Origin: Pseudomonadota bacterium
GTDB lineage: Bacteria > Myxococcota_A > Polyangia > GCA-2747355
Length of the DNA: 64,000 nt
Assembly (NCBI GenBank): GCA_016711215.1
Contig: JADJTL010000001.1
Coordinates: 1,144,067-1,208,066 of the forward strand
Reading direction: 5' to 3'
Below, one piece after another: positions 1 to 17,873 of this stretch. Under the pieces are notes generated by a model. It was not told the DNA's origin. It saw only the letters and a program-made list of their open reading frames with translations, and searched no databases. Position numbers and translations under genes: made by a program. Positions within the stretch are counted from its first letter, which is position 1. Each line of letters begins with the position of its first letter.

Positions 1-878
1 CGCGCGTACCAGATCGTCTCCTCGGGTAGATTGCCGTACCAGATCAGCATGAACTGCGAGAAGGCGATATAGGACCAGAAGACCGTGAAGCCGAAGAGCA
101 GCTTGCCGAGATCATGGTAGTGCTCGACGCTGATGACGTCGCCGAGCACCCCGGCGCTACGCAAGAGCAGCCCGACCAGCGCGAGAAAGGCGAAGATCGC
201 GACGACGCAGCCGGAGAAGTAGTAGACGCCGAACATCGTCGAGTACCAATGCGGATCGAGCGACATCAGCCAGTCGAAGGCCGCGAAGGTCACTGTAAGC
301 GCGAAGAGAATAATGGCCGGGCCGCTCAGTCGCTGCAGGCGCAGGGTCGCCTCTGGGGCACCGTCCTGATCCTGTCGCAGGGAGCGCCGATAGAAGGCCC
401 AGGCCAGGGCGGTCCAGATGCCGAAATAGCCCAGCGCGCGCGCCACGAAGAAGGGGATGTTGAGGTAGGGCGTCTTGCTCGCCAGCAGCGCATCGTGCCT
501 GAGCGCGTCGGGGTGGGTCCAATGAAAGAGCTCATGGAGACCGCCGACGACGGGTAGAAAGAGCAGGCCGAGCAGGGGCAGCGTGATCATCGCGTGCTCG
601 GCCAACCGCCGCACGACGACGCTCCAACCCGCCCTGGTGGCGAACTGCACGATGACGAAGAAGAGCGCACCGAGCGCGATGCTGAGCCAGTAGAGCAGCG
701 CCACGAGGTAGGAGAAGTGAGCCTGGCGTGCAGCGCCCGCGCCGCGACCAAGCAGCCAGTGGGCCATCAGCGCGAGCAACCCGACGCTAGCCGCCGCCAA
801 GGAGAGCGCGCGCCAGGTCTTGGAGCGGGGCAGGCGGAGCTGCTCAGGGCGCAGGGTCGAAGGGGCGGCGTGCGTCAC
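1..878 (-). CDS. actF: Alternative complex III subunit ActF (second NrfD/PsrC-like membrane subunit); C-terminus runs off the window
   Basis: Absent from the ORF track because it has a GTG start (complement of cac 876-878) and no stop inside the window. My minus-strand translation from 878 reads VTHAAPSTLRPEQLRLPRSKTW...HWYSTMFGVYYFSGC...FSQFMLIWYGNLPEE, a polytopic hydrophobic sequence. GTGA overlap with the actE stop. Gene order matches actABCDEF. Confidence 0.8.
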   Translation of the reverse strand, partial: MTHAAPSTLRPEQLRLPRSKTWRALSLAAASVGLLALMAHWLLGRGAGAARQAHFSYLVALLYWLSIALGALFFVIVQFATRAGWSVVVRRLAEHAMITLPLLGLLFLPVVGGLHELFHWTHPDALRHDALLASKTPYLNIPFFVARALGYFGIWTALAWAFYRRSLRQDQDGAPEATLRLQRLSGPAIILFALTVTFAAFDWLMSLDPHWYSTMFGVYYFSGCVVAIFAFLALVGLLLRSAGVLGDVISVEHYHDLGKLLFGFTVFWSYIAFSQFMLIWYGNLPEETIWYA

Positions 879-1546
879 GGCGTCCTCCAGCCGCGTCGCA
901 CGACGACGTCAGGCGGTAGCTGATCGAGGGTGGCGTGGCCGGCGAGCTGGAGCGCGCGGACATAGGCGGCGATGGCCCAGCGATCGGTGACCGGGATGGC
1001 CCAGGCGTAGGAGGGCATGCTGCGCACGCCCTCGCTGATGACGCCGAAGAAGTGACCGATCGGCGCCTGGAGCAGACGCTGCTCGTGGTAGGAGGGCGCG
1101 GGTACGGCCATCTTGCGCGCGCGCAAGATCGACTCCCCATTGCCACTCGCTCCATGACAGGGTTGGCAGTAGATGTCGAAGCGCTCGCGGCCGCGCTGTA
1201 ACAAGTCGGCGGTCAGCGCCACGGGCAGGCGATCGGCTGGCTTTCCGTCAAGGGTGCCGCGATAGAGATGCTCGCTCTCGCGCAGCGCGCCGTGGGCGAT
1301 GGTGTTGGCCGGTGGCGTGCGCATCGCCCGCCCGTCGGCGAAGAAGGCATTGCTCTGCTGGGCGCCAAAGCGCGCCTGTGAAGCCATGTTCTGCTGCAGA
1401 TGAACCGGCGGTGAGCTCGATCGCCCACCGCGACAGGCGGAGAGGCCGAGCAGCAGCAGCGCCGCGACCCGAGCCGCCGCAACGAAGCCGCGTGCGTGGC
1501 GCCATCGCCGCGCCAAGAGCCTTGCTGCTTGCCTCAGCACGCCCAT
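875..1546 (-). CDS. actE: Alternative complex III subunit ActE, monohaem c-type cytochrome lipoprotein
   Basis: 223-aa ORF with signal peptide and lipobox (LLLLGLSAC) and a single CxxCH (CQPCH). Lies between actD and actF. Confidence 0.8.
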   Translation of the reverse strand: MGVLRQAARLLARRWRHARGFVAAARVAALLLLGLSACRGGRSSSPPVHLQQNMASQARFGAQQSNAFFADGRAMRTPPANTIAHGALRESEHLYRGTLDGKPADRLPVALTADLLQRGRERFDIYCQPCHGASGNGESILRARKMAVPAPSYHEQRLLQAPIGHFFGVISEGVRSMPSYAWAIPVTDRWAIAAYVRALQLAGHATLDQLPPDVVVRRGWRTP

Positions 1547-1586
1547 CGGGGGCCTCCGTATGAGGGGGTCATTGGGCTTGGGGGCA

Positions 1587-2124
1587 TCATTGGGCCAACA
1601 GCTCGACGTGCGTCGCGCCGAGCTCCTTCAACCAACCGGGGGTCTGGTCGGGATCGAAACGCGGGTCCGCCGCCTCGACCGAGATGAAGAAGCGATCGTC
1701 GCCGACCCCGGCGAAGCGCTCGCTGCGAAACACAGGATGGTAGTGGCGAGGGAGCCGGTTGAAGTGCAGCATCCCCAGAACGCAGGTCAACGCGGCCGCC
1801 AGCACGCCGACCTCGAAGGTCACGGGGACGAAGGCGGGCCAGCTAAAATAGGGTTTGCCAGCGATCACCATCGGATAGGCGATGGTGCTGGTCCACCACT
1901 GCAGGCCGAGGCCGCCGGCGGCCCCGAGCATGCCGCCGACGAAGACGACCCAGGGCAGGCGCGAGGGGCGCAGACCCATCGCGCGGTCGAGTCCATGCAC
2001 TGGAAAGGGGCTATGGGCGTCCCAGCGCGAGAAGCCGCCATCGCGTAGGCGCTCGCAAGCGCGATAGAGCGCCGTCGGGTCGGCGAATTCCGCCAACACG
2101 CCCCAGGTCTCGGTGGCTGGCGTT

Positions 2125-2132
<8 letters not shown>
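1587..2132 (-). CDS. actD: Alternative complex III subunit ActD (DUF3341-like)
   Basis: 181-aa ORF with a soluble N-domain and two hydrophobic helices ([22 protein letters not shown]; [22 protein letters not shown]). 8-nt overlap with the actC 3' end. Confidence 0.75.
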
Positions 2133-3612
<1,480 letters not shown>

Positions 3613-3641
3613 ACGATGTGAACCTAGATCAGCGAGCCGGC

Positions 3642-6600
3642 TCAGCCGAGCTTGGGGTTGGGGTTGCGCACGCGCGCGAGGTAGGTCGTGCGCGGCTTGA
3701 GATTCATGTCGCCCAGCACCGCGTAGTTGCGGTCGCGCTGCTTGAGCTGCGCGACGCGGCTCCGCGGGTCATTGAGATCGCCGAAGACGATCGCCTCGGT
3801 CGGGCAGACCTGCTGACAGGCCGGCACCACCGTGCCGTCGGCGATGGTATCGCTGCCCGCGGCCTTGGCCGCGAGGCGGGCGCCGTTGATGCGTTGCACG
3901 CAGTAGGTGCACTTCTCCATCACCCCGCGAAAGCGCACGGTGACGTCGGGGTTGCGCTGCATCGCCAGCAGCGCGTTCTGCCGGTCGTGCTCGGCCTGGT
4001 AGTTGAAGAAGTTGAAGCGCCGCACCTTATATGGGCAGTTGTTGGCACAGTAGCGTGTGCCGATGCAGCGGTTGTAGGCCATGTCGTTCAGCCCCTCGGG
4101 GCTATGCGCGGTGGCGCCGACCGGGCAGACGCTTTCGCAGGGCGCCGTCTCGCAATGCTGGCAGGCCATCGGCTGCGTGACGGGCAGGGCGTCGTCGCTC
4201 TCGCCGCTGAAATAGCGATCGAGGCGAATCCAATGCATCTCGCGGCCGTTGAGCACGCGCTCCTTGCCGACGACGGGGATCGTGTTCTCTGACTGGCAGG
4301 CGATCGTGCAGGCGTTGCAGCCGATGCAGCTGCTGAGGTCGATCGTCATGCCCCATTGCCGACCCGTCGTGGGGTTGGGCGGCTCCCAGAGCAGGGTCTT
4401 GACCTCGGCGTCGGGCAGGAGCTGCGCGGCGCGGGCGAAGTCAGGGTCGCGCTGGTACTGCGCCAGCGTTGCCTCCTGCACGATCGGGCGGCGCTGGCCG
4501 GTCAGGGGCTCGATCAGCGTGCCGTGGTCCTGCGTGCAGGCGAGCGCGTAGTGCCCGCGCAGGTGGCGCAGCCTGACGCCTTGGGCGAAGCGCGAGGCGT
4601 CGACGGTGCGCAGCGCGTTGGCGTTGAAGCCGCGGCCGTCGGCCACCGGGCCGCTATGCTGGCGACCATAGCCCAGCGCCAAGGCGACGCAGCTCTCTGC
4701 GACGCCCGGCGTGATCCAGACGGCGGCCTGCAGGCGGCGACCATCATGTTCGAGCTCGATCAGCTCCTCGGACTTGAGCCCGAGCCGGCGCGCCGTGGCT
4801 GCCCCGATCAACGCCGCGTTATCCCACGTCAGCTTGGTCACCGGATCGGGCAGCTCTTGCAGCCAGGCGTTGCCGGCGAAGCGGCCGTCGTAGAGCGTCG
4901 CGTCGAGCTGAAAGACCAACTCCAGGCGTTGGTCGGTGGGGGCCGGTCTATCGAGGGCGTCCTGCGGGCGCGCCGTCCGGGCGTCCCGATCGGCCGAGCC
5001 GCTCGAGCCCTCGAGCGTTGGTCGCGCTGCGGGCCTGCCGGCGAGCTGGGTCGCAAGCGCCTGCCACTCGTAGGTGGGGCTGAGCGCGGCGAGCTCAGCC
5101 GGGCGCTGCCCGTCATGGACCAGCGCGCGCCAGCGACGCTCGTGGCTGGCCTCATCGGCCCCGGCCGGCAGCAGGCCTGCATAGGCTGCGGTCGCCGGGC
5201 GGCGCAGCAGCGTGTAGCCATCGTGGAGCTTAGAGGCGATCAGGCGCGCAACGAGCTCGATCGGCGAGAGCGAGGCGAAGAGGGGCGCGATCAGCGGCTG
5301 CTGCACGCTGATCGTGCCGTCGGCGGCGCGGAGATCGCCCCAGGCCTCGAGGAAGTGGCTTTGGGGCACGACCCAGCGCGCCAGCGCCGCGGTCTCGTTG
5401 GCCGTGGGGCAGAGGTAGATCGTCGACGGGACGCGGCGCAGCAAGGTGCCGAACTCGAGATCGGCCGGCGCGTCATAGACCGGGTTTCCGCCGACGATGA
5501 CCAGCGATGAGACGGTCTCGGCCCGCAGCGCCGCGGCGAGGGCCTCGATCCCCTCGCAGTCCGCTGCCAGGTCGGGGTAGTAGCTGACCGTCTGGCCGAC
5601 GCTGCCGAGCAGCGCGTTGGTCAGCTGGCCGAGCGCATGGACCAGCGGCGGCTGCCCTTCGCCAACGATGATCAACGCCCGCCCGCGATGGGCGAGGAGG
5701 TCCTCGGCCAGCGCGCCAATCCAGCGCTGATGCGCGGCGCTCGGCGCGCGCGCCCGCAGGCGCGCCAGGAGCTGCTCGGCGCCGGCGGGCGCCGGCAGGG
5801 AAGGCGCGAGCTTGGCGACCAGGTCGGCGAGAAAGCCACCCACCTGCGAGGCCGCCAGGCGCAGGCGATTGTCGGCGTTCATCCCCGTGACGGTGAAGGC
5901 TGGCTCGACCACGTAGAGCCTGTTCATCCCGTCGCGCGGGCTGGTGAGGCGCCGTCGTTGGGCAAAGGCGCGGGCCTGGCGGACGACGTCGCCCTCGAGG
6001 CCGAGCGGATCGGCGTCGAGGGCTAGCACGACATCGGCGCGATCGAGCGCATAGCAGGGCCGAGCCCCCTTCAGCCCGACGAGTGCTGCGCCGGCCAGGC
6101 TCTGCCGTGGTTGGGCCGCGTCGTGGACGTAGAGGCGTGCGTGCGGGTAGCGAGCGCGAAGCTCGCCCAGCAGCGCGTGGAGCGTCGGCGAACGGAGGTC
6201 CTGCAGCAGCAGCGCCAGGCCGCGCCCCTGCTGCCGCTCGAGGCGCGCCGCGAGCCCGGCCAGCGCGGCATCGCGCTCGCGCGTGGAGACCGAGCGGTCG
6301 CCGAGGCGCGTGCGCCGCAGGCGCTGCGGGTCGTAGAGATCGAGCACGCTCGCCTGCAGGAAGGTGTCGGTGGCGCCGCGACTCATCGGATGGTCGGGGT
6401 GGCCCTCGATCTTGGTCGGGCGTCCGTCCTGGCTCTCGACGAGCAGGCCGACCACCCCCCCCGTGAGCTGGGCGGCGGTGGCGTAGTAGCGCGGCTGTCC
6501 AGGGACCAGATCCTCGGGCCGCTGGTTGAAGGGCAGGATCAGCTCGCGTGGCTTGCGCACGCAGCCGCTCAGCGTGGCGCCGGCGAGGGTTAGCGAGGCG

Positions 6601-6797
6601 CCCATCACCCCGAGGAAGTCGCGGCGCCCGACGTGGTCGAGGTCGAGCTGCGCGGCATTGGGCGGAAACTCGTCGCGCTGGGCAGCCTGCGCTGGATCGA
6701 TCGGCGCGCCCTCGGCATTGAGGCTGCGCCAATGACGCGGGGCGGTGGCGTTTCCCTCGGCGGTGGCAGCGGGGGCGTGCACTCTAGGCGTAGTCAT
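3642..6797 (-). CDS. actB: Alternative complex III subunit ActB (molybdopterin-oxidoreductase-like domain fused to a 4Fe-4S ferredoxin-like domain)
   Basis: The ORF track extends to 7019. The ATG at 6797 overlaps the actA stop (ATGA) and precedes a twin-arginine motif ([17 protein letters not shown]). The C-terminal part carries ferredoxin-type Cys clusters ([43 protein letters not shown]). Confidence 0.85.
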
Positions 6798-7522
6798 CGG
6801 TGGCACCCCGAGCAGTGCAAGGGCGGCTCGAGCTGGCGCTTGCGCCGCGGATCGCGCGCGGCGACGTAGCCCGCGGCCGCCGGGTCGTAGCCGAGGTCGG
6901 TGACTTTGTCCAACGGACCCACCCGGCCCGCTGGGTTGCGGTGGCAGTCCAAGCACCAGCTCATGCTCAGCGGCTGGACCTGGCGCACGACCGTCATCTG
7001 GTCGACGCGGCCGTGACACTGCACGCAGCCGACGCCCGCGGCCACGTGGACGCGGTGATCGAAGAAGGCGTAGTCGGGCAGCAGGTGAACGCGCACCCAG
7101 GGGAGCGGCAGCCCGCTGGCATGGGCGATGCGCAGGGGCGCGAGCTTGACGGTCTCGGGCAAGATCAGCTTCTCGTGACAGCCCATGCAGGTCTGCGTCG
7201 GGGGCACGGCGGCGACCGGCGCCCGCTCGACGGTGCTGTGGCAGTAGCGGCAGTCGAAGCCGAGCTCGCCCGCGTGGAGCTTATGGCTGAAGGGGACGGG
7301 CTGGATCGGCTCGTAGCCGACGTCGGTAAACGAGGGAGAAAACCAGTACCAGATCGCGCCGACGACCGTCGCCAAGACCACGGGCAAGGCCAGGCCGAGG
7401 TAGAGCGGAAGACGATTGGTCCAGCGCGGGAAGAGCGGGGTCACGGCTTGTCGACGCTCCCTCGGTAGCAGTAGTCGCCGGCAGTCGCCCCAGCGGCTTC
7501 GATCCCGGGCGACCTCGAGCAC
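6794..7522 (-). CDS. actA: Alternative complex III subunit ActA, membrane-anchored pentahaem c-type cytochrome
   Basis: Five CxxCH motifs (CRYCH, CMGCH, CVQCH, CLDCH, CSGCH) after an N-terminal TM helix (LPLYLGLALPVVLATVVGAIWYWF). First gene of the operon. Exact start uncertain. Confidence 0.8.
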   Translation of the reverse strand: MLEVARDRSRWGDCRRLLLPRERRQAVTPLFPRWTNRLPLYLGLALPVVLATVVGAIWYWFSPSFTDVGYEPIQPVPFSHKLHAGELGFDCRYCHSTVERAPVAAVPPTQTCMGCHEKLILPETVKLAPLRIAHASGLPLPWVRVHLLPDYAFFDHRVHVAAGVGCVQCHGRVDQMTVVRQVQPLSMSWCLDCHRNPAGRVGPLDKVTDLGYDPAAAGYVAARDPRRKRQLEPPLHCSGCHR

Positions 7523-7885: not shown

Positions 7886-9007
7886 ATGATTATTGTGATG
7901 CGCCCCGAATGCGGGCCTGAATCCCCCGAAGTGGCCGAGGTCGTGCGCCTGGCGCGGACCTTCCCCGACGTGCAACCAGAGGTACGGCAAATCCAGGGCG
8001 CCACGCGCTCGCTGACGGAGGTCTACCTGATCGGATCGACTGGCCAACTGCCGCTCGATCGCTTCGCCGACAGCCTGGGCGTCGAGCGCGCGATCCGCGT
8101 GCGAGAGAAATATCGTGCGATTGGCCGCCACGAGGGGCAGGTCGAGGCGCTGGGCTTCGAGTACAACGGGCTCCGCTTCGGCGATGATAGCTTCCATGTC
8201 TTCGCCGGGCTCTGCGCGGTCGACACCCGTGAGAACGTCGAGCAGATGTTCCGCGCGCTGAAGCAGCTCGGGCTGCAGACGACGCGTGCCGGGGCCTACA
8301 AGCCGCGCACCAGCCCCTACGATTTCCAGGGGCATGGCCGCGCCTGTCTGCCCTACGTCTTCGAGCTGGCCGGCAAGTACGACATCAAGTGCGTGGCGAT
8401 GGAGATCACCCACGAGACGCAGCTCGACGAGATCCGCGAGGCCCTCGAGCGCGCCGGGCAGCCGACGGGTGTGCTGATTCAAATCGGCACGCGCAACGCG
8501 CAGAACTTCGAGCTGCTGAAGCACGTTGGGCAGCAGCAGGACTTTCCCGTGCTCTTCAAGCGCGGGATGGGCATCACGCTGGCCGAGTCGCTGAATGCCT
8601 GTGAATACATCGCCAGCGGCGGCAACCATCGAATCATCTTCTGCCTGCGCGGGATGAAGACGAACCTCGGCGATCCGCACCGAAACCTCGTCGACTTCGC
8701 GCATGTGCCGGTGGTCAAGCGCCTGACGCGCTTGCCGGTCTGTATCGACCCGTCGCATTCGGTCGGCCAGCGCCTGGTGGCGTTGGACGGCTTGCTCGAC
8801 ATGCATCACGCGGCAGCGCAGGGCATCGTCGCCGGCGCGAACATGGTGCTGGTCGACTTCCATCCGACGCCAAAAGAGGCGCTCTGCGACGGCCCGCAGG
8901 CCCTCTTGCTCAAGGAGCTCGAGCACTTCGTCGCCGACACCCAGCTCGTGCGCAAGGCCTACCTCGACCGGATAGCCCTCGGTCGGCGCCTGCTCCAAGA
9001 GCGCTAG
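7886..9007 (+). CDS. aroF: 3-deoxy-7-phosphoheptulonate (DAHP) synthase, type I-beta, with N-terminal ferredoxin-like regulatory domain
   Basis: The 373-aa ORF aligns by eye end to end with Thermotoga-type DAHPS. Shared motifs: MIIVMRP start, GAYKPRTSPYDFQG, IQIGTRNAQNF, CIDPSHS. Confidence 0.9.
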   Translation: MIIVMRPECGPESPEVAEVVRLARTFPDVQPEVRQIQGATRSLTEVYLIGSTGQLPLDRFADSLGVERAIRVREKYRAIGRHEGQVEALGFEYNGLRFGDDSFHVFAGLCAVDTRENVEQMFRALKQLGLQTTRAGAYKPRTSPYDFQGHGRACLPYVFELAGKYDIKCVAMEITHETQLDEIREALERAGQPTGVLIQIGTRNAQNFELLKHVGQQQDFPVLFKRGMGITLAESLNACEYIASGGNHRIIFCLRGMKTNLGDPHRNLVDFAHVPVVKRLTRLPVCIDPSHSVGQRLVALDGLLDMHHAAAQGIVAGANMVLVDFHPTPKEALCDGPQALLLKELEHFVADTQLVRKAYLDRIALGRRLLQER

Positions 9008-9039: not shown

Positions 9040-9047
9040 CGCCCTGC

Positions 9048-9092
9048 GCACGCCACGCACGCCACGCACGCCACGCACGCCACGCACGCCAC
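9048..9092. repeat. 9-bp perfect tandem repeat gcacgccac x5
   Basis: Read directly; intergenic, downstream of aroF. Confidence 0.9.
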
Positions 9093-9337: not shown

Positions 9338-10540
9338 ATGACGAATCAAGACGCTCGACCAGATGCTCGACCAGATGCTCGACCAGATGCTCCACGCGAC
9401 GGCCGAGGCGTTGGCGTGCAGGCGCTGAGAGCCAGGCGGTGGGTCGCAATGCTCGGCCTTTGCGCACTGCAACTTGGCTGCGCGGGCAGCGTCGACTCGG
9501 GTGCTGCGGGGGGCGATGCCCTGGGCACCGGTGGGTCGATCTACGACGTCACCAACACCGCCGGGGCCGTCGGGTCGACCGCCAGCGAGAGCGCTATTTC
9601 GAGCGGCACGAAGCTCTTCGTCATCGCCGACGGGGCACGGGTCAACGTGACGGTGGCCGGCAGCAGCACCCCGGTGATCTGGGGCAAGCTGTCGACGGGC
9701 GACGTGCTCGGCTTCGGCTATCTCGACAAGGCCTATCGCTATGAGCACGGCGGCACGGCCACGGAGCTGCTGCCCAGCGGTTCTGCGGGCGGGATGGTGA
9801 CGAGCTCGATGGTCGCGCCGGGCGCGGAGATCGGGCTGCCCAGCCTCAACCTCACGGGGACGACCCAACCCTACGTGCTGATCGTGCGGGGACCGGAGGC
9901 CAGCGGTGCCTACGGTTATATACTTTCGCCCTGCGGCGACGCTGCCTGCTCCAACGGCCCGACGGATGCCACCGTGCGGACCGCGGTGGCCAATCAACCG
10001 GTCAACGTCGGGGGTGATTACACGCTCGAGTTCCGCCCGGTCGAGCTGAACGGCGTTGCGAAGACGCTCTTCTCGCTGCGGAGGACGACGGCCGTCGCCA
10101 CCAGCGCGAGCACCAGCGCGAGCACCAGCGCGACCACCGCGGCGACCAGCAGCGTGGCCCCGGCCGCTCCCACCCCGCCACCCCCGCCGCCCACGGCCCC
10201 CACGGCCCCCACCGCGCCGGCAAAGGCCGCCGACGACGGCTGGTCGATGACCGATTGGCTGCTGCTCGGTGGCGCCGCGGTGGGCGGGTACGTCCTGTGG
10301 ATGAAGAAATGCGACTGGTTCGATATCGCCTGCAACGGCGCACAGACGAACGCTGCCGGCGGCGGTCCCAACTGGGGTGGTAATGATCCTAGCCTTCTGA
10401 ACGGGACGGTGGGAGGCAACACAGCCGCCTTTCCTTATGGCTATCAGTCCGCGACGGGAGCTGGCTGCTACGTCGATGCGAATGGACAGGTGCGGCTCAG
10501 ATCGACGCACCTTCTCGGCGACACTTGGAGCTGCTACTAG
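9338..10540 (+). CDS. Hypothetical repeat-containing envelope protein (putative lipoprotein with C-terminal TM helix and Cys-rich tail)
   Basis: AGGAGG 8 nt upstream of the ATG. N-terminus is MTNQ(DARP)3, followed by signal/lipobox MLGLCALQLGCAGS. Low-complexity TSAS and PTA repeats, Pro-rich linker, TM WLLLGGAAVGGYVLW, and a tail with 4 Cys. I recognise no family. Confidence 0.6.
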   Translation: MTNQDARPDARPDARPDAPRDGRGVGVQALRARRWVAMLGLCALQLGCAGSVDSGAAGGDALGTGGSIYDVTNTAGAVGSTASESAISSGTKLFVIADGARVNVTVAGSSTPVIWGKLSTGDVLGFGYLDKAYRYEHGGTATELLPSGSAGGMVTSSMVAPGAEIGLPSLNLTGTTQPYVLIVRGPEASGAYGYILSPCGDAACSNGPTDATVRTAVANQPVNVGGDYTLEFRPVELNGVAKTLFSLRRTTAVATSASTSASTSATTAATSSVAPAAPTPPPPPPTAPTAPTAPAKAADDGWSMTDWLLLGGAAVGGYVLWMKKCDWFDIACNGAQTNAAGGGPNWGGNDPSLLNGTVGGNTAAFPYGYQSATGAGCYVDANGQVRLRSTHLLGDTWSCY

Positions 10541-10654: not shown

Positions 10655-11869
10655 TCAGCCGCAGCCGCCACTCTTCTTGCCCTTCGGTCGCAGCTTCACC
10701 GTGGGCGTGTAGGGTAGCTTCGGCGCATGCTCGGGGTCGAGCGCGGCCGCCGGATGGCGATCGCCGAGGGCGGCCGCGAAGCGCCAATGCAGCCGGTCGT
10801 CGCCGGCGACGGCGGTCGTGATCGGCTCGACGCCGGTCGATCCCGCTCCATAGGTCGCGATCCAGCGGTTGAGGCCGCCGGCGAGGACGTAGACATTGGG
10901 CACACCGAGCAGCGCCAGGTGGCGCCAGGCGGCCGTGGCGGACGTCTCGTCATTCGAGATCAGGATCACGACGCTGGGATCCGGTAGGCTGATCAGCCTC
11001 CGCCGCTGGCTCGGCAACGCCGCGATCGAGACGCGCTCGGCGTTGGCGAGGTGAAAGCGGTTCCAGTCGCTCTCGGGCCGCAAGTCGAGCGTCACGAGCT
11101 TCAGATCGCGGTCGCCCTGCAGGGCCAGCAGCTCGGCCGGCACGATGAAGACCTCGCGGCGCGCGAGCTGGGGCTGGTACTTGGCGCCCAGTCGCTCCCA
11201 CTTGGCGTCGAGTGAGGGCTGGCCGAGCGCTGCGACGGCGCCCACGCCGCCGAGGAGCAGCGCCGTGCCGGCCATCGCCTTGGGCCAGTGGACGGGCCGC
11301 TCGTGACCGAGCCGTCGCGCCACGAATTTCAGGCCGCCGAAGAAGGCGAGGGCCAGCAGAGCGACCAGCCCCACCGCGGTGGCCGTCGAAACGCCGAAGA
11401 GGTCGGTGAGTTGGAGTGGACCGAAGTGGCCGGCGTAGTAGAACGCGCGGAAGTAATCGGCCGTCTCGCCGAAGGCGAACATGCCGAGCAAGCTGCCGAG
11501 CACGAAGAAGAACCCGTCGATCTTACCGGTAGCCAACGAGGCCAGCGACGTTCCCGGGCAGTAGCCGCCGATCGCGAAGCCGACGCCAAAGATCAGCCCG
11601 CCGAGGGCTACCGAGGGGACGTAGGTCGGATTGACCCAGAGCTGGTCGAGGTCGAGCCAGCGCAGGCCCGAGCTGAGATAGAGCAAGAGCATCGCCGTGA
11701 CGATCGCCGTGAACATCGCCTGCACGACGCGCAGCTCGCGGAAGTAGAACTGCGCCGCGAGTCGCCGCGCGTCGCCGAAGCCGGTGGACTCGAGCACGAA
11801 GCCGAAGGCCAGCCCGATCAGCACCTCGACCAGATGGGCCGACCAGCCGCCCAACGCGAAGGGGCCCAT
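10655..11869 (-). CDS. YeeE/YedE-family sulfur-transport membrane protein (half-size) fused to a C-terminal rhodanese-like domain lacking the active-site Cys
   Basis: The N-terminal ~190 aa are polytopic, with the GGYCPGTS motif typical of YeeE/YedE. An extra TM helix follows, then a rhodanese-fold region (LVTLDLRPESDWNRFHLANAERV ... VVILISNDETSATAAWRHLALLGVPNVYVLAGGLNRW). The usual Cys position is Ser. The protein ends KGKKSGGCG. Confidence 0.75.
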   Translation of the reverse strand: MGPFALGGWSAHLVEVLIGLAFGFVLESTGFGDARRLAAQFYFRELRVVQAMFTAIVTAMLLLYLSSGLRWLDLDQLWVNPTYVPSVALGGLIFGVGFAIGGYCPGTSLASLATGKIDGFFFVLGSLLGMFAFGETADYFRAFYYAGHFGPLQLTDLFGVSTATAVGLVALLALAFFGGLKFVARRLGHERPVHWPKAMAGTALLLGGVGAVAALGQPSLDAKWERLGAKYQPQLARREVFIVPAELLALQGDRDLKLVTLDLRPESDWNRFHLANAERVSIAALPSQRRRLISLPDPSVVILISNDETSATAAWRHLALLGVPNVYVLAGGLNRWIATYGAGSTGVEPITTAVAGDDRLHWRFAAALGDRHPAAALDPEHAPKLPYTPTVKLRPKGKKSGGCG

Positions 11870-11872
11870 GGC

Positions 11873-12415
11873 TTAGCCTTCCTCGCGGCCGGGGGTCCAT
11901 AGTCGCCGCACGAAGAAGGCGCAGCCGTAGGCCCCGGCAAAGCAGGCGAAGAGGAAGATCCACGAACCCACGGCGAGCGTCGCTCCGCCGCTGAGGCCCT
12001 GCCCCGAGGTGCAGCCACGCGCCAGCCGGGCGGCATAGCCCACCAGCGCGCCCCCGACGAGGGCGGCGATCCAGCGCACGCGCGCTGTGATCCGCGGACC
12101 GTGGAAGGTCTCGAGGCGCACGCGCCGGCGGAGCAGGCCAGAGGTCAGGCCGCCGAGCAGCACGCCACCGATCGACCAGACGATCCAGTGATCGAGAGGC
12201 CCGCCGGCGCCGCGCATGAACTCGGCCACGGCCGGGGTGCGGGCCACATGGCGCGGGGCGACGCGCTGCTCGGCCGCGGCCACGAGGCGCGCCGTGCCGC
12301 CCGAGCTGCCCAGCCCGTGGCCCGTGACGAAGAACGCCGCAAAGAGCACCAGTCCGAGCATCAGCCCGCCGAAATAGGGATTCCAATAGCGTGGGTTTTC
12401 GCCCGGCATCGTCAC
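11873..12415 (-). CDS. YeeE/YedE-family sulfur-transport membrane protein (half-size)
   Basis: 180-aa hydrophobic ORF with the conserved LARGCTSGQGLSG motif. ATGA overlap with the upstream cytochrome gene and a 3-nt gap to the downstream YeeE-rhodanese gene. Confidence 0.75.
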   Translation of the reverse strand: MTMPGENPRYWNPYFGGLMLGLVLFAAFFVTGHGLGSSGGTARLVAAAEQRVAPRHVARTPAVAEFMRGAGGPLDHWIVWSIGGVLLGGLTSGLLRRRVRLETFHGPRITARVRWIAALVGGALVGYAARLARGCTSGQGLSGGATLAVGSWIFLFACFAGAYGCAFFVRRLWTPGREEG

Positions 12416-15400
12416 TCCTTCGGCTTCGGTCGCAATGGGCCGCGTTGGGCGGCGGTGGCCAGCGGTCGCGCCGGCCGATAGGCTAGCGCGCCGTCGCTGC
12501 CGCGCTCGAGCGCGCCGTCGAGGGCGACCGTCTCGGCGCTGGCAGCGGCGGCCAACGTCGGCCTCAGGCCACCGGGCAGATAGGGGGCGACGACGAAGGA
12601 TCGCCGCGCCGCCTCTGAGCTCGGGTGGCAGCGCGCGCAGGCCCGGCTCGCTGCCGCCCCGAGCCCCACGCCGTGGTAAATCGGGTAGGGGCGCAGCTCA
12701 CCCTGGATGACGGCGCCGGCCGCGCCGAGGGCCGCGATCCCTTTGGCGACCAGCGCCACCTTGGCGGCGGTGTCGAGTCGTAGCTCCCTGTCGGTGACGC
12801 GGCCATCGTGGTTACTGTCGAGCGCGGCGATGATCTCGGCGCGATAGCCGTCACGGTCGCGGAAGACCCGCTGCACGAGCGCGGGTGGCACCGGCCGCTT
12901 ACCGACGATCCAGCGATAACTGGCCACGAGGTTCGCGGGCGTCAGCCGCGTGATCCCGTCGCCACCGCGCGCGCGCACGAGCGCTGGTTCGTAGCCCGCG
13001 AGGTAGAGCGTCGCCGGATCGACGACCTCGCCAGCGGCGGGGTCAGCGGCGGCGCTAGCGATGCCGCGGTAGAGCAGGCGAGGGGAGCCGTCCGGGCGCA
13101 CGACGGTGGCGTCGACGAGCGATCGCGCGGGGAGCGCGAGGCGTGGCACGTGGCAGGCCTCGCAGGCGACCTTGGCGAAGTGCTGCTGCTGGGCCGGCAG
13201 CCAGGGGTGCAAACCCTCCAGGCTGTGGCAGCTCTGACAGCGGCGTCGCTCGCCGGGCTTGGCTGCCCGCGCCTTGGCGATCGCGCCGCCGAGCTGCGCG
13301 GGCCGTCGGCCGCTGTAGTGGCAGGCACCGCAGCTCACCAGCCGCTGGGCGTGGATATCCCAGGGCTGCCCCTGCTGGTCTTTTTGCATCAGGTTCAACG
13401 CCGAGCGGCGTATCGCCTGCCAGGAGAACACCTGGCCGGTCGTTTCCGTCACCCACTGCGTGCCGTCGAGGACGACGTTCAGCGGCGCGCTGCCGTTATC
13501 GACCAGGCCATGGCAGGCGCCGCAGCTCGCTTCGCCCGTCCGCCCGAGCTTTAGCTCTACCGCGCCCTCGGCGTCGAAGGCCGCGGGACGCCAGCGCCAG
13601 CGTTGCGCGGCCGCCTCCTCGATCAGCGCGGCGGGCAGCGTGGCGCCGATCGACCACTCCGGCTGATCGCTGGCCAGGGCGCGCCCTCGCGCCGCGTGAT
13701 CGGCGGCCTCGAGATGACAGAGGAAGCAGTTGGTTTCTTCGCCCGTGGCGGGGGGCAGGCGGGGCCCCCAGCGCAAGAGCTCGCTGCGTGGCTGCGGCAA
13801 GGCCTCCAGCGCGAGCCCTGCGTGCAGGCGGTGGGTCGCCACGAAGCTCGCGTCCGCCAGCTCATGGCAGCCGCCGCAGGTCTGGGCGGTAGAGAGCGGC
13901 GCGGCGCTCTCAAATACCGATTGTCCGACGCGGTCCTTGAGCGTGATTCGCGGATGCTCCACGGCCTCGCGCGCGAGCGGGTCACGCGGATAGCCCAGGG
14001 CCCGCCAATCGAGGCGTCCGCGCTCGCCGTGACAGTCGCGGCAGGTCAGGGCCGCTTCCTTCCGTTGCACCATATGCGAGAGCGGCCAGAACATCTCCGT
14101 CGCCGCGAAGCCGTAGCGTCCGCTGTAGGGCAGCCCCGTGGCTTTCGCCCCCTCACGCGCCGCGAGGTCCCAGTCGAACTTGGTCCAGTAGCCCTTCGGC
14201 CCGCTGGTATTGGGCAGCAGCAGGTGGCGATGGTCTTGGTCGTAGAGCTGCTTGCCCAGATGGCGCTTGAAGGGCCAGAGCTTGGCGCTGGGATCGTGGC
14301 GGTCGCCGAGCGGTGAGGTGATCGCGGTCACGCCGCCGGGGTCGATCTTGTCGCCCAGCAGGTAGCGCGTCGAGCGCCCGTTGTACCAGCGGTACTCGGG
14401 GAGGGCGCCCTTGGCCCAGGTGAAGCGGCCCTTGATCTTGAGATAAGCGTGTGGGTCCGTGCTCGGGAGATCCTTTCCGGCCTCGGACCAATCCCAGCTC
14501 AGCTTCGTGCCCTCGGTCACGGACATCGACGGGATGTGGCAGGCCTGGCAGGCGACCCGGGCGGTGTGTCGGTTGAGCTGGCTATCGTGATGAGGCTGCG
14601 CCGCGTGGCAGTCGCCGCAGCTGACCTGGTGGGCGCTCTCGACGCTGACCGACATCGCGCGTCCGCGCAGCCGATGGTTCTGGGTGCGGTGGCAGTCGAC
14701 GCACTGCAACTCCAAGCGACCCATATGCACATCGACCCCTTCGCTGGGAAAGAGCAGGCTGCGGTCCATGTCGCCGTGCTTGACCGCGTCGCCGCCGCCG
14801 CCCATGAAGTGGCAGGCACCGCAGTTGGCGCGTCGCGGCCGGCCCACCGAGCGCGCCACCGCCAGCAGATCGACGCTCGGATCGGGCAAGCCGGCGCCCT
14901 TTGCCTGCTTGCTGTAGGTGCCGCTCTGGTCGTGACAGACGAGGCAATCGACCAGGCTCGGGTTGTTGAAGTCGAAGTCCGGTCCGTTCCAGCCGAAGCC
15001 GGCATGGCAGCTCGTGCAGGCGCCCCAGTTGGAGCTGATGCCGATGCAGAAGTTGTTGATCGCGTTCTTCTTGCCGATGCGATGCAGGCCCCGATGCCCG
15101 GGAACCGAGACCGGGTCGCCCTGCCAGGTCCAGTGCACCGTGCTCATCAGCTCGCGCGCCGCCCTCGGGTGGCACTCGAGGCAGGCGCGCGTCACCGCCG
15201 GCCCGTCCCGAAAGGGCGTGTCGAAAAACGTGCTGTGACTGACGGGCGGCGGCCGCAGCGGCAGTTGTGCGAGCCCAAGGCCAGCGGTTGGGTTGCGCTC
15301 GCAGCCGGCGGCGTAGCAGACGAAGCAGGCGGCGCCGACCACGAGCGCGCCCGCGCGAAAGGAACGCGGGCGGCCATCGCGTCGCGCGAGCTCGCCGCGC

Positions 15401-15441
15401 CGAGTACGGGTGCTCTTCACGATCAGCCCATGCGGGTCCAC
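12412..15441 (-). CDS. 15-haem c-type cytochrome, predicted lipoprotein: octahaem tetrathionate-reductase (OTR)-family-like N-half plus 7-haem C-terminal extension with an EF-hand loop
   Basis: I count 15 CxxCH in 1009 aa. Motifs 1-8 (CLECH, CTSCH, CLVCH, CGACH, CVDCH, CGDCH, CQACH, CRDCH) have spacing and flanks (MSTVHWTW, NNFCIGISSNWGACTSCHAGFGW) that I recall from the OTR family. Motifs 9-15 lie in residues ~520-940. Lipobox CYAAGC. DSNHDGRVTDRE matches the EF-hand loop consensus. Confidence 0.75.
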   Translation of the reverse strand: MDPHGLIVKSTRTRRGELARRDGRPRSFRAGALVVGAACFVCYAAGCERNPTAGLGLAQLPLRPPPVSHSTFFDTPFRDGPAVTRACLECHPRAARELMSTVHWTWQGDPVSVPGHRGLHRIGKKNAINNFCIGISSNWGACTSCHAGFGWNGPDFDFNNPSLVDCLVCHDQSGTYSKQAKGAGLPDPSVDLLAVARSVGRPRRANCGACHFMGGGGDAVKHGDMDRSLLFPSEGVDVHMGRLELQCVDCHRTQNHRLRGRAMSVSVESAHQVSCGDCHAAQPHHDSQLNRHTARVACQACHIPSMSVTEGTKLSWDWSEAGKDLPSTDPHAYLKIKGRFTWAKGALPEYRWYNGRSTRYLLGDKIDPGGVTAITSPLGDRHDPSAKLWPFKRHLGKQLYDQDHRHLLLPNTSGPKGYWTKFDWDLAAREGAKATGLPYSGRYGFAATEMFWPLSHMVQRKEAALTCRDCHGERGRLDWRALGYPRDPLAREAVEHPRITLKDRVGQSVFESAAPLSTAQTCGGCHELADASFVATHRLHAGLALEALPQPRSELLRWGPRLPPATGEETNCFLCHLEAADHAARGRALASDQPEWSIGATLPAALIEEAAAQRWRWRPAAFDAEGAVELKLGRTGEASCGACHGLVDNGSAPLNVVLDGTQWVTETTGQVFSWQAIRRSALNLMQKDQQGQPWDIHAQRLVSCGACHYSGRRPAQLGGAIAKARAAKPGERRRCQSCHSLEGLHPWLPAQQQHFAKVACEACHVPRLALPARSLVDATVVRPDGSPRLLYRGIASAAADPAAGEVVDPATLYLAGYEPALVRARGGDGITRLTPANLVASYRWIVGKRPVPPALVQRVFRDRDGYRAEIIAALDSNHDGRVTDRELRLDTAAKVALVAKGIAALGAAGAVIQGELRPYPIYHGVGLGAAASRACARCHPSSEAARRSFVVAPYLPGGLRPTLAAAASAETVALDGALERGSDGALAYRPARPLATAAQRGPLRPKPKE

Positions 15442-15459
15442 GTTGGGCGCTGCCTACGA

Positions 15460-15678
15460 TCAGCCCTCGGTCTCGTTCGGTCGCTCGACGCGCACGGCCT
15501 TCGGTTTCCCGAGGCGCGAGACTCCGACGCGCACCCGCACCGGGTCGCCGACCTTGGGCTCGTAGGTGCAATTGAAGGCATCGAAGGGGATCTGGCGACC
15601 ATCCTCGAGCTCGACGGTGCCAAAGCCCTGTTCGCGGGCGAAGCTGAGCACCTTTCCGGGAAATAGCTCATCAGACAC
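15460..15678 (-). CDS. Small (72 aa) OB/cold-shock-domain-like protein, divergent
   Basis: GTG start with GGAGG upstream. The ORF-track N-terminus upstream of this start is implausible. Pattern GKVLSFAREQGFGTVELEDGRQIPF...VGDPVRVRV loosely resembles CSD proteins. Lies 18 nt upstream of the cytochrome gene on the same strand. Confidence 0.45.
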   Translation of the reverse strand: MSDELFPGKVLSFAREQGFGTVELEDGRQIPFDAFNCTYEPKVGDPVRVRVGVSRLGKPKAVRVERPNETEG

Positions 15679-16693: not shown

Positions 16694-16697
<4 letters not shown>

Positions 16698-17632
16698 GCT
16701 GGCTGCTCCGCCGGCTCGTGCACGAGGCTGACGAAGATGTCCTGAAGCGAACTCTGGCTGGTATGGAGGTCTTTGAAGTCGATGTCGAGCGCGCGCAGTC
16801 GCTCCAGCAGCGAGGCGATGCCCGTCTCCTCTCGTTGCGCGTCGAAAGCATAGACCAGCGCGCGATTGGCATCGGCGAGCTCGAGCGCGAAGTCCGAGAG
16901 CTCGGCCGGGAGCTGGTCGAGCGGCGCTCGCAGGGTCAGCTTGAGTTGCTTCTTGCCGAGCTTGGCCATCAGCGTGTTCTTGTCCTCGACGAGGATCAGC
17001 TCGCCCTTGTGGATCACGCCGATGCGGTCAGCCATCGCTTCGGCCTCCTCGATATAGTGCGTCGTCAGGATGATCGTGACGCCCTGTTCTCGGAGGCGGC
17101 CCACCATCGTCCACATGTCGCGTCGTAGGTTGACGTCGACGCCGGCCGTCGGCTCATCGAGAAACAGGATTCGCGGCTCGTGGGCCAGGGCCTTGGCGAT
17201 CAAGACCCGTCGCTTCATGCCACCCGACAGCGTCATGATCTTGCTGTCTCTCTTTTCCCACAGCGAGAGCTCCCGCAGCACCCGCTCGAGGTAGGCGGGG
17301 TCCGGGGCCTTGCCGAAGAGGCCGCGGCTGAAGTTGACCGTGGCCCAGACGTTCTCGAACGCGTCGGTCGAGAGCTCTTGCGGCACCAGGCCAAGCTTGG
17401 AGCGCGCGGCCCGGAAGTCGCGGATGATGTCGTGGCCGTCCGCGTTGACCGTGCCGCTGCTAGGGTTGACGATGCCGCAGACGATGCTGATCAGCGTCGT
17501 CTTGCCAGCGCCGTTTGGGCCCAGCAGCGCAAAGATCTCCCCACGCCGAATCTCGAGGTCGAGCGCCTTCAGCGCGCGGAAGCCGGACGCGTAGGTCTTG
17601 CTCAGCTGACGAATGCAAACGATCGGATCCAC
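16694..17632 (-). CDS. ABC transporter ATP-binding protein (YadG-like, partner of the ABC-2 permease)
   Basis: Walker [10 protein letters not shown], signature LSGGMKRR, Walker B ILFLDEP. ATGA overlap with the permease start. I prefer the GTG start at 17632 (GGAG upstream) because the longer ORF-track N-terminus overlaps tRNA-Ser. Confidence 0.85.
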
Positions 17633-17701
17633 GCGAGCTCCGGCGGCAAGGGCGCAGCGTAGGGGAGGCATAGCCCCGGACGCTGGCGAAGGCGAGCGCT
17701 C

Positions 17702-17737
17702 GCGCCGATCGCGCCGAGCGCGCCGAGCGCGCCGAGC
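17702..17737. repeat. 9-bp tandem repeat gcgccgagc x4 (first copy gcgccgatc)
   Basis: Read directly; intergenic, between the ABC ATPase start and tRNA-Ser. Confidence 0.85.
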
Positions 17738-17783
17738 GGCTGGTGCGTCAGGGCCAGAGCGCTGGGACCGGGTCAGGCAAATA

Positions 17784-17873
<90 letters not shown>

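Follow-up and report, generated by a model that had tools for sequence, protein, structure and literature searches.

What does a cytochrome of the octahaem tetrathionate reductase (OTR) family do when its gene stands directly in front of the genes of a sulfur-compound channel? The question is raised by a locus on contig JADJTL010000001.1 of assembly GCA_016711215.1, of which a stretch of 64,000 nt (positions 1,144,067-1,208,066, hereafter called the window) was analysed. The OTR family is abundant (one search matched over 7000 clusters), and it is annotated from one in vitro activity, its physiological role being unclear. OTR homologues reduce tetrathionate in vitro (PMC6449678), and an environmental otr gene was induced 36-fold by tetrathionate (10.1101/2020.10.01.322446). 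In the window, an OTR-family cytochrome is encoded in one tight unit with the two halves of a YeeE/YedE channel, one of which continues into a rhodanese fold with a Gly-Gly-Cys tail, referred to below as the arm. The family memberships of these parts, their conserved residues, their strict synteny and their alternative gene fusions are observed directly. Together they suggest, tentatively, a multi-part module for sulfur redox chemistry.

Composition and conservation of the module

The initial annotation of this DNA described four tightly packed genes on the minus strand, and the open reading frames (ORFs) lie where it placed them; all coordinates of module features given here refer to that strand. 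A small gene of 72 residues (15460-15678, its ORF running to 15765, with GGAGG ahead of a GTG start) is followed by the gene of a 15-haem c-type cytochrome of 1009 residues, composed of an OTR domain and a seven-haem module (12412-15441, GTG start at 15441). Behind it come a PmpA-like YeeE/YedE half of 180 residues with a Sulf_transp match (half A, 11873-12415) and a protein of 404 residues in which the other YeeE/YedE half precedes a rhodanese fold (half B, 10655-11869, with Sulf_transp and Rhodanese matches). The gaps of 18 nt between the stop of the small gene and the GTG of the cytochrome and of 3 nt (GCC) between the two channel halves read from the sequence as had been claimed. The 4-nt overlap of the cytochrome stop with the start of half A is also present, but its bases are GTGA and not ATGA; an alternative start of half A is an in-frame ATG two codons downstream (12409), preceded by AAGGAG. 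The neighbour downstream of the module lies on the opposite strand. A scan of the locus for promoter and terminator consensus sequences gave nothing above shuffle expectation, so the operon boundaries rest on gene spacing and strand.

The unit is as tight as described, but its conserved part comprises three genes here, the small gene not being one of them. The latter has no Pfam or NCBIfam match, and among the related loci a relative of it was found in L005 only (8056-8298, 89% identity). Since it is present in the closest relative alone, it was dropped from the module and is best regarded as a lineage-specific gene outside it.

For the study of conservation, one genome per species was scanned with a profile of the seven-haem half of the cytochrome, which matched 138 genomes, and the best 80 loci, all of them from metagenome-assembled genomes, were examined. 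They belong to Gammaproteobacteria, Myxococcota/'Deltaproteobacteria', Chloroflexota, Calditrichota, KSB1, Eisenbacteria, Gemmatimonadota, Acidimicrobiia, Acidobacteriota and Bacteroidota, about ten phyla in all; metagenome-assembled genomes bearing the names Caldilinea aerophila and Ardenticatenaceae (L042, L052, L054 and L068) are among the carriers. The initial annotation had let its reading stand or fall with the conservation of this neighbourhood in relatives, and the neighbourhood is conserved: the cytochrome gene is followed by half A, half B and rhodanese, in this order, in each of the 60 loci whose downstream sequence extends over 2 kb or more, and half A is present in 69 of the 69 loci with at least 600 nt downstream. 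Reverse look-ups from fused half B-rhodanese proteins led to cytochromes directly upstream (4/4), and one extra look-up from a stand-alone rhodanese also reached cytochromes. The arrangement is far from chance.

The same parts are joined in different ways from lineage to lineage. Half B and the rhodanese domain are fused in some lineages and encoded by separate genes in many Gammaproteobacteria. Chloroflexota and most other phyla encode the OTR on its own (~480 residues), while their seven-haem protein continues C-terminally into a PF01292 membrane cytochrome b, a fusion represented by 35 ORFs among the related loci; in one variant locus, the cytochrome b has a gene of its own, and in L090 the six parts are six separate genes with overlapping stops and starts. 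The form found in the window, with the OTR and the seven-haem part fused and without cytochrome b, occurs in 31 other loci, one of which has a module-type cytochrome b ~6 kb away on the opposite strand. Such alternative fusions of the same parts argue for module proteins that work in one physical complex. Shewanella algae and Malonomonas rubra have OTRs that stand alone, without the partner genes, so that the module marks a subset of OTR genes. Upstream of the S. algae OTR (L092, 3814-7401) are genes for a DUF3373 protein and a monohaem cytochrome, and an operon for a Psr/Phs-like molybdoenzyme is located nearby, a setting unlike that of the module.

Several features of the surroundings are confined to some of the loci. 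In ~15 loci of Gammaproteobacteria (such as L025, 14266-16905, and L014, 5735-7885), the module stands beside an MtrB/PioB-type porin and more multihaem and cytochrome b genes, a context faintly suggestive of a connection with extracellular electron transfer in these bacteria. A regulator of the ArsR/HTH_5 type lies directly upstream in 25 loci from many phyla (L043, 7645-8244; L002, 7685-7990; L086, 2055-2378) and is absent from the window; the regulators of these 25 loci have no consistent BigR/SqrR-like Cys pair, and therefore persulfide sensing is not claimed for them. In L001 (GCA_041320475.1, 10965-12271), half B and the rhodanese gene are broken into several small ORFs next to an intact cytochrome and half A, which could reflect gene decay or an assembly error.

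The cytochrome, the channel halves and the arm

In the cytochrome, the CxxCH motif occurs exactly 15 times, eight times within residues 87-471 and seven times within residues 522-939. The initial annotation had arrived at the same count, had likened the first eight motifs to the OTR family and had placed the remaining seven beyond residue ~520, and both the motif count and the profile search that it had proposed for the N-terminal half agree with it. Residues 68-484 (13990-15240) reach 573.3 bits against TIGR04315 (cutoff 375) and cover profile positions 2-440 of 440. The match to 1SP3, the OTR of Shewanella oneidensis, has E=3e-146 and 51% identity over 420 aligned positions (residues 69-491), with the CxxCH motifs at 87, 142, 166, 207, 247, 275, 298 and 467 in register with those of 1SP3. 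In 2004, Mowat et al. reportedly described Lys56 of 1SP3 as a ligand of the active-site haem 2 that lies outside the CxxCH motifs. By alignment, its equivalent is Lys124 in GKKN (15070-15072), and the free Cys64 of 1SP3 corresponds to Cys132 (15046-15048). Both residues are invariant in 15 full-length homologues, as are all 15 haem motifs, and the signature GK...NN[FY]C is found in 73 of 73 related OTR domains. On sequence grounds, residues 68-484 are a true OTR-family domain. Further upstream, Cys47 (15301-15303) follows 'AAG' and is a candidate lipobox Cys; 9 of the 15 homologues have a Cys after G, A or S at the aligned position. The N-terminus is a probable signal peptide or lipobox, and of the lipoprotein claim made initially a plausible lipobox stands, but not proof of lipidation.

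The remaining 518 residues (492-1009; 12415-13968) form the seven-haem module, recognised by its seven CxxCH motifs and by homology. Besides the His residues of these motifs, seven further His are invariant or near-invariant in the homologue alignments, so that this half fits bis-His electron-transfer haems. Its residues ~67-277 are homologous to OTR residues 152-307, which hold haems 3-7 (hhalign probability 98%, E=2e-13). The structural model is poor, with a mean predicted local distance difference test (pLDDT) score of 58 and a fold search that returned nothing but noise, its best match being 1SP3 at E=0.09; hence, no fold is claimed, and the homology to haems 3-7 is taken from hhalign. We read this half as a putative electron wire derived from an OTR duplicate minus the active site. 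It appears to be a separable electron-transfer module, and its fusion to cytochrome b in other phyla points to a wire to the quinone pool. An invariant EF-hand-like loop, DxDxDGxxxxxE, at residues 875-886 (12784-12819) is probably a calcium site.

The two membrane proteins match opposite halves of one profile, as the initial annotation had proposed. Half A reaches 73.6 bits against Sulf_transp (PF04143, cutoff 27) over profile positions 175-309, the C-terminal half of YeeE, and the first 180 residues of the half B protein reach 53.3 bits (cutoff 27) over positions 10-149, the N-terminal half; the membrane part of half B (11216-11869) consists of the YeeE N-half and two further transmembrane helices. 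Each half has a conserved channel Cys. In half A it is Cys135 (12011-12013) in ARGCTSGQ, a motif kept in 58 homologues, with the Cys retained in at least 90% of the aligned ones; in half B it is Cys104 (11558-11560) in GGYCPGTS, the Cys of GGxCPGTS being invariant in homologues. Single-sequence searches of the PDB with the YeeE halves gave no match for the membrane parts, and the half B profile reached the N-half of StYeeE weakly (E=0.01). PmpA and PmpB are heterodimeric YeeE halves, of which PmpA has the equivalent of Cys293 (essential) and PmpB that of Cys91 (Li et al., PMC11582611), and halves A and B appear to be a complementary split YeeE of this PmpA/PmpB type. The gap of only 3 nt between their genes and their co-occurrence in 100% of the loci point indirectly to a putative heterodimer. 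Scores against the TsuA equivalogs NF041049/NF052577 lie below the cutoffs, for half A (13.6 vs 645; 29.4 vs 400) as well as for half B (15.8 vs 400).

YeeE/TsuA is a thiosulfate transporter that depends on a partner protein with a Cys (PMC7449682; PMC11582611). The initial annotation had found no YeeD/TusA partner, and in agreement with this no small CPxP (YeeD/TusA-like) gene is conserved in the 80 neighbourhoods of relatives, where conserved neighbours were clustered from ORFs of at least 90 residues; the TusA profile was not run on the ORFs of the window.

Residues 244-338 of the half B protein (10856-11140) match PF00581 with 45.9 bits (cutoff 22.2), and their model (pLDDT 84-94) matches rhodanese structures in a fold search. 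In the alignment to 6MXV, Ser305 stands at the position of the catalytic Cys, in an SNDE loop (10946-10957) that replaces the catalytic Cys loop and reads SNDE or GNDE in most homologues. The rhodanese fold had thus been recognised correctly, but the YeeD/TusA-like cytoplasmic role attached to it does not agree with this loop or with the periplasmic location predicted below; judged by its residues, a domain without the catalytic Cys cannot be a YeeD/TusA-like cytoplasmic sulfurtransferase. The conserved Cys lies elsewhere. The protein ends in GGCG (10658-10669), in which Cys403 (10661-10663) is the penultimate residue and the sole other conserved Cys besides that of the channel. A GC-x C-terminus is found in 59 of 61 complete homologues of the half B-rhodanese protein, and stand-alone rhodanese forms mostly end in the same way; in an exhaustive search for the rhodanese protein, which gave 224 clusters at E<=1e-10, lengths of ~410 residues (fused) and ~210 residues (stand-alone) dominate. 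The tail is modelled with pLDDT <50, consistent with a flexible or disordered segment, and Cys403 is likely a reactive thiol. No Pfam or NCBIfam match to SoxY or SoxZ was obtained in the 404-residue protein, and none among ten neighbour proteins scanned with Pfam.

The side of the membrane on which this tail lies can be predicted in several ways. The N-terminus of YeeE lies on the outer side of the membrane, and its two halves have opposite orientations owing to helix H7 (PMC7449682). Because half B corresponds to the N-out half with two extra transmembrane helices, the rhodanese domain would emerge outside. The same topology follows from alternating counts of Lys and Arg, whose means for the N-terminus and loops 1-5 in 20 homologues are 0.2, 3.1, 0.2, 0.05, 1.15 and 5.0, and from the signal-like N-termini of the split forms. 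In these, half B has a basic C-terminal tail, and the rhodanese protein opens with MK(K/R) and a hydrophobic stretch before GQP, which resembles a signal peptide or anchor. It is therefore very probable that the rhodanese domain lies with its Cys tail in the periplasm, alongside the cytochrome.

Three kb beyond the module and on the same strand, the window contains an alternative complex III set (875-7522). It encodes an ActA-like multihaem protein (6794-7522), ActB with molybdopterin and FeS features (3642-7019), the NrfD-type ActC (2125-3612) and ActD (1587-2132), with a monohaem cytochrome beside them (875-1546). This complex is a possible candidate for the electron partner of the form without cytochrome b, proximity being the sole connection between the two. 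Other observations in the window concern short tandem repeats of 9 and 12 bp (9047-9092, 9349-9392 and 10098-10154), the second of which encodes DARP repeats at the N-terminus of a 400-residue ORF on the plus strand (9338-10540) that has no family match, and a tRNA-Ser(tga) on the minus strand (17786-17873). The ORF at 16694-17830 (ABC ATPase) runs into this tRNA, so its true start lies further downstream.

Possible routes of sulfur and electrons

The reading that we favour, with reserve, is that of a six-part module in which an OTR, a seven-haem wire, a cytochrome b (absent here), PmpA/PmpB-like channel halves and a periplasmic rhodanese domain with a GGC-x arm would carry out sulfur redox chemistry at the outer face of the cytoplasmic membrane. 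Electrons would enter through the seven bis-His haems, donated in most phyla by quinol via the fused cytochrome b and in the window organism by another periplasmic donor. They would then reach the Lys-ligated haem 2 of the OTR, where the S-S bond of a tetrathionate-like substrate would be cleaved reductively. The Cys of the channel-tethered arm may capture or present the sulfur species as a covalent adduct (an S-thiosulfonate or a persulfide), much as SoxY carries its sulfur intermediates in covalent form. From the arm, the product would be passed to the periplasmic entrance of the channel and then, by way of the two conserved channel Cys, into the cytoplasm.

The steps of this proposal differ in strength. 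By analogy, the arm Cys is probably a sulfur carrier: a relay from the Cys of SoxY along the Cys residues of the SoxT/YeeE channel has been proposed (PMC11582611), and a divergent soxY is located between otr and soxZ in lucinid symbionts (PMC11237559), which makes the analogy between SoxY and the arm more than cosmetic. That the OTR acts on arm-bound sulfur is conceivable, and we hold it with less assurance. A single continuous covalent relay, in which the arm shuttles sulfur between the active-site haem and the Cys-lined pore, is the boldest part and rather unlikely. As to the direction of electron flow, reduction seems the likelier and is rated somewhat above oxidation, because known quinol oxidases include proteins in which a cytochrome b is fused to a multihaem cytochrome c and because most carrier phyla are not known as sulfur lithotrophs.

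A number of points weigh against the proposal. No gene for a module-type cytochrome b was found anywhere in the 64-kb window, so that here electrons would have to come from another periplasmic donor. PF01292 cytochromes b include quinol-oxidising as well as quinone-reducing members (FdnI and HyaC reduce quinone), and hence the cytochrome b leaves the direction of electron flow undecided. The in vitro substrates of OTR include nitrite and hydroxylamine as well. In the 80 neighbourhoods, conserved genes near the module do not include one for a cytoplasmic sulfur acceptor, and the likeness to SoxY is confined to a four-residue tail. The topology is a matter of prediction, the membrane part of the half B-rhodanese model has pLDDT of ~50-75, and the function of every member of the module is deduced from sequence and models.

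The alternative that survives best runs the same parts oxidatively, in the manner of SoxXA or TsdA. The OTR would couple thiosulfate or sulfide/polysulfide to the arm Cys, electrons would flow out along the seven-haem wire, either onto cytochrome b and quinone or, in the window, onto another acceptor (e.g. the neighbouring alternative complex III or a cytochrome c chain), and the arm-bound sulfur would be imported by the channel for cytoplasmic oxidation or assimilation. Much of this has precedent, since conjugation to a GGC arm by SoxXA and import of SoxY-bound sulfur via the YeeE-like SoxT are established or proposed (PMC11582611), and the sulfur-oxidising symbionts have a soxY-otr-soxZ cluster (PMC11237559). 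Many carriers of the module are Chromatiales or other Gammaproteobacteria, and quinone reduction is within the range of its cytochrome b family. However, the characterised OTR homologues were assayed as reductases, most carrier phyla (Anaerolineae, Calditrichia, Myxococcota and Acidimicrobiia) are not known sulfur lithotrophs, and no sox, dsr or shdr genes lie near the module in the window. We regard oxidative running as unlikely.

Somewhat less likely still is the model of the initial annotation, according to which free tetrathionate is reduced to free thiosulfate, which then enters through the heterodimeric YeeE, with a cytoplasmic rhodanese tail in place of YeeD/TusA. Membership of the OTR family, thiosulfate transport by a YeeE/TsuA that relies on a Cys-bearing partner (PMC7449682; PMC11582611) and the lack of a conserved YeeD/TusA nearby are all compatible with it. 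Its weak point is the rhodanese domain, whose loop has no Cys and which the charge distribution, the orientation by homology and the signal-like N-termini of the split forms put outside; moreover, the TsuA equivalog scores of half A fall far under their cutoffs (13.6 against 645 and 29.4 against 400).

An improbable variant replaces sulfur by selenium or tellurium, with a YedE-like channel moving Se and the arm binding it as a selenotrisulfide or perselenide after the cytochrome has reduced selenite. Among NCBIfam models, half A indeed matches best the one for the selenium-linked YedE/FdhT (E=9e-8), and a model of rhodanese-related (seleno)proteins weakly matches the rhodanese domain (E=4e-4), but both scores are far below the curated cutoffs (31.6 vs 350 and 20 vs 115). 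Other systems offer parallels: a YedE-like protein carries selenium in Methanococcus, as cited in PMC11582611, and from Geobacter a multihaem enzyme whose activity depends on selenite is known, as is a rhodanese lipoprotein tied to selenite uptake (PMC13510729). Against this, neither the window nor the conserved neighbourhood showed any selenoprotein or sel genes, and the OTR domain is 51% identical to a tetrathionate-reducing enzyme. The remaining alternative, a nitrite or hydroxylamine reductase for detoxification or respiration beside functionally unrelated channel and rhodanese genes, is very improbable, for although the S. oneidensis OTR (as quoted in PMC11237559 from its reference 85) and a Beggiatoa homologue (PMC6449678) reduce nitrite in vitro, the genes co-occur in 100% of the loci, with overlapping stops and starts and alternative fusions over about ten phyla, and the partner proteins come from sulfur-handling families.

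The six-part module with its Cys arm, if it works as we propose, would matter beyond this locus. A covalent relay, if true, would give OTR-family enzymes the physiological role that they have lacked for twenty years. That a large subset of these enzymes is locked to a YeeE-type channel and a Cys arm points to protein-bound or channelled sulfur as their real substrate, and the module offers a concrete way to test the cellular role of OTR-type cytochromes. It is also a naturally occurring YeeE in two pieces whose partner is predicted to lie outside the cytoplasm, and it is thereby relevant to how YeeE and SoxT receive sulfur from periplasmic carriers. In soils, sediments and wastewater communities, it may represent an overlooked pathway by which tetrathionate, thiosulfate or sulfane sulfur is turned over.

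Relation to known systems

The initial annotation knew of no described system with this architecture, and a full-text literature search for OTR together with YeeE, rhodanese or cytochrome b likewise found no description of the module. The pentahaem selenoenzyme MccSep of Geobacter and the octahaem cytochromes of Dethiobacter were considered as prior descriptions and rejected as different proteins. Each component belongs to a known family. What appears to be new is their combination, together with a periplasmic rhodanese that has lost the catalytic Cys but ends in a GGC tail and the strict linkage of these genes to an OTR. To our knowledge, covalent channelling between cytochrome and transporter has so far been described for neither kind of protein.

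The closest characterised relative of the cytochrome is the S. oneidensis OTR (1SP3), which shares with it the same eight CxxCH motifs, the Lys56/Lys124 and Cys64/Cys132 pairs and the end-to-end 51% identity. The window protein differs from it by the additional 518-residue seven-haem extension and a probable lipid anchor. In contrast to the stand-alone OTRs of S. algae and M. rubra, an OTR of the window type is always located beside channel and arm genes.

The channel resembles PmpA/PmpB, YeeE (TsuA) and SoxT, half A corresponding to the C-half with the Cys293 equivalent and half B to the N-half with the Cys91 equivalent, encoded by adjacent genes. Compared with PmpB and YeeE, half B carries two additional transmembrane helices, a predicted periplasmic rhodanese fold and the GGC-x tail, while the YeeD/TusA partner is absent. 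The tail itself recalls SoxYZ, which has a C-terminal GGCGG arm (SoxY motif VTIGGC, PMC11237559): common to both is a Gly-Gly-Cys near the C-terminus on a flexible tail, predicted to be periplasmic here. There is no SoxY or SoxZ fold in the present case, the tail being attached to a rhodanese fold tethered to a channel, and the likeness is therefore one of functional analogy alone.

Sud of Wolinella succinogenes (1QXN), a periplasmic single rhodanese fold proposed to feed a respiratory reductase, gives a weak match in both sequence and fold. Unlike Sud, which has the canonical loop Cys, the rhodanese domain described here has an SNDE loop and its conserved Cys in the tail. A last parallel is provided by the CbcL-type fusions of Geobacter, in which a dihaem cytochrome b is joined to a multihaem cytochrome c and which act as quinol oxidases. 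The relatives of the module outside Proteobacteria likewise fuse the seven-haem part to a PF01292 cytochrome b, a likeness of architecture, whereas the version in the window has the seven-haem part without the cytochrome b.

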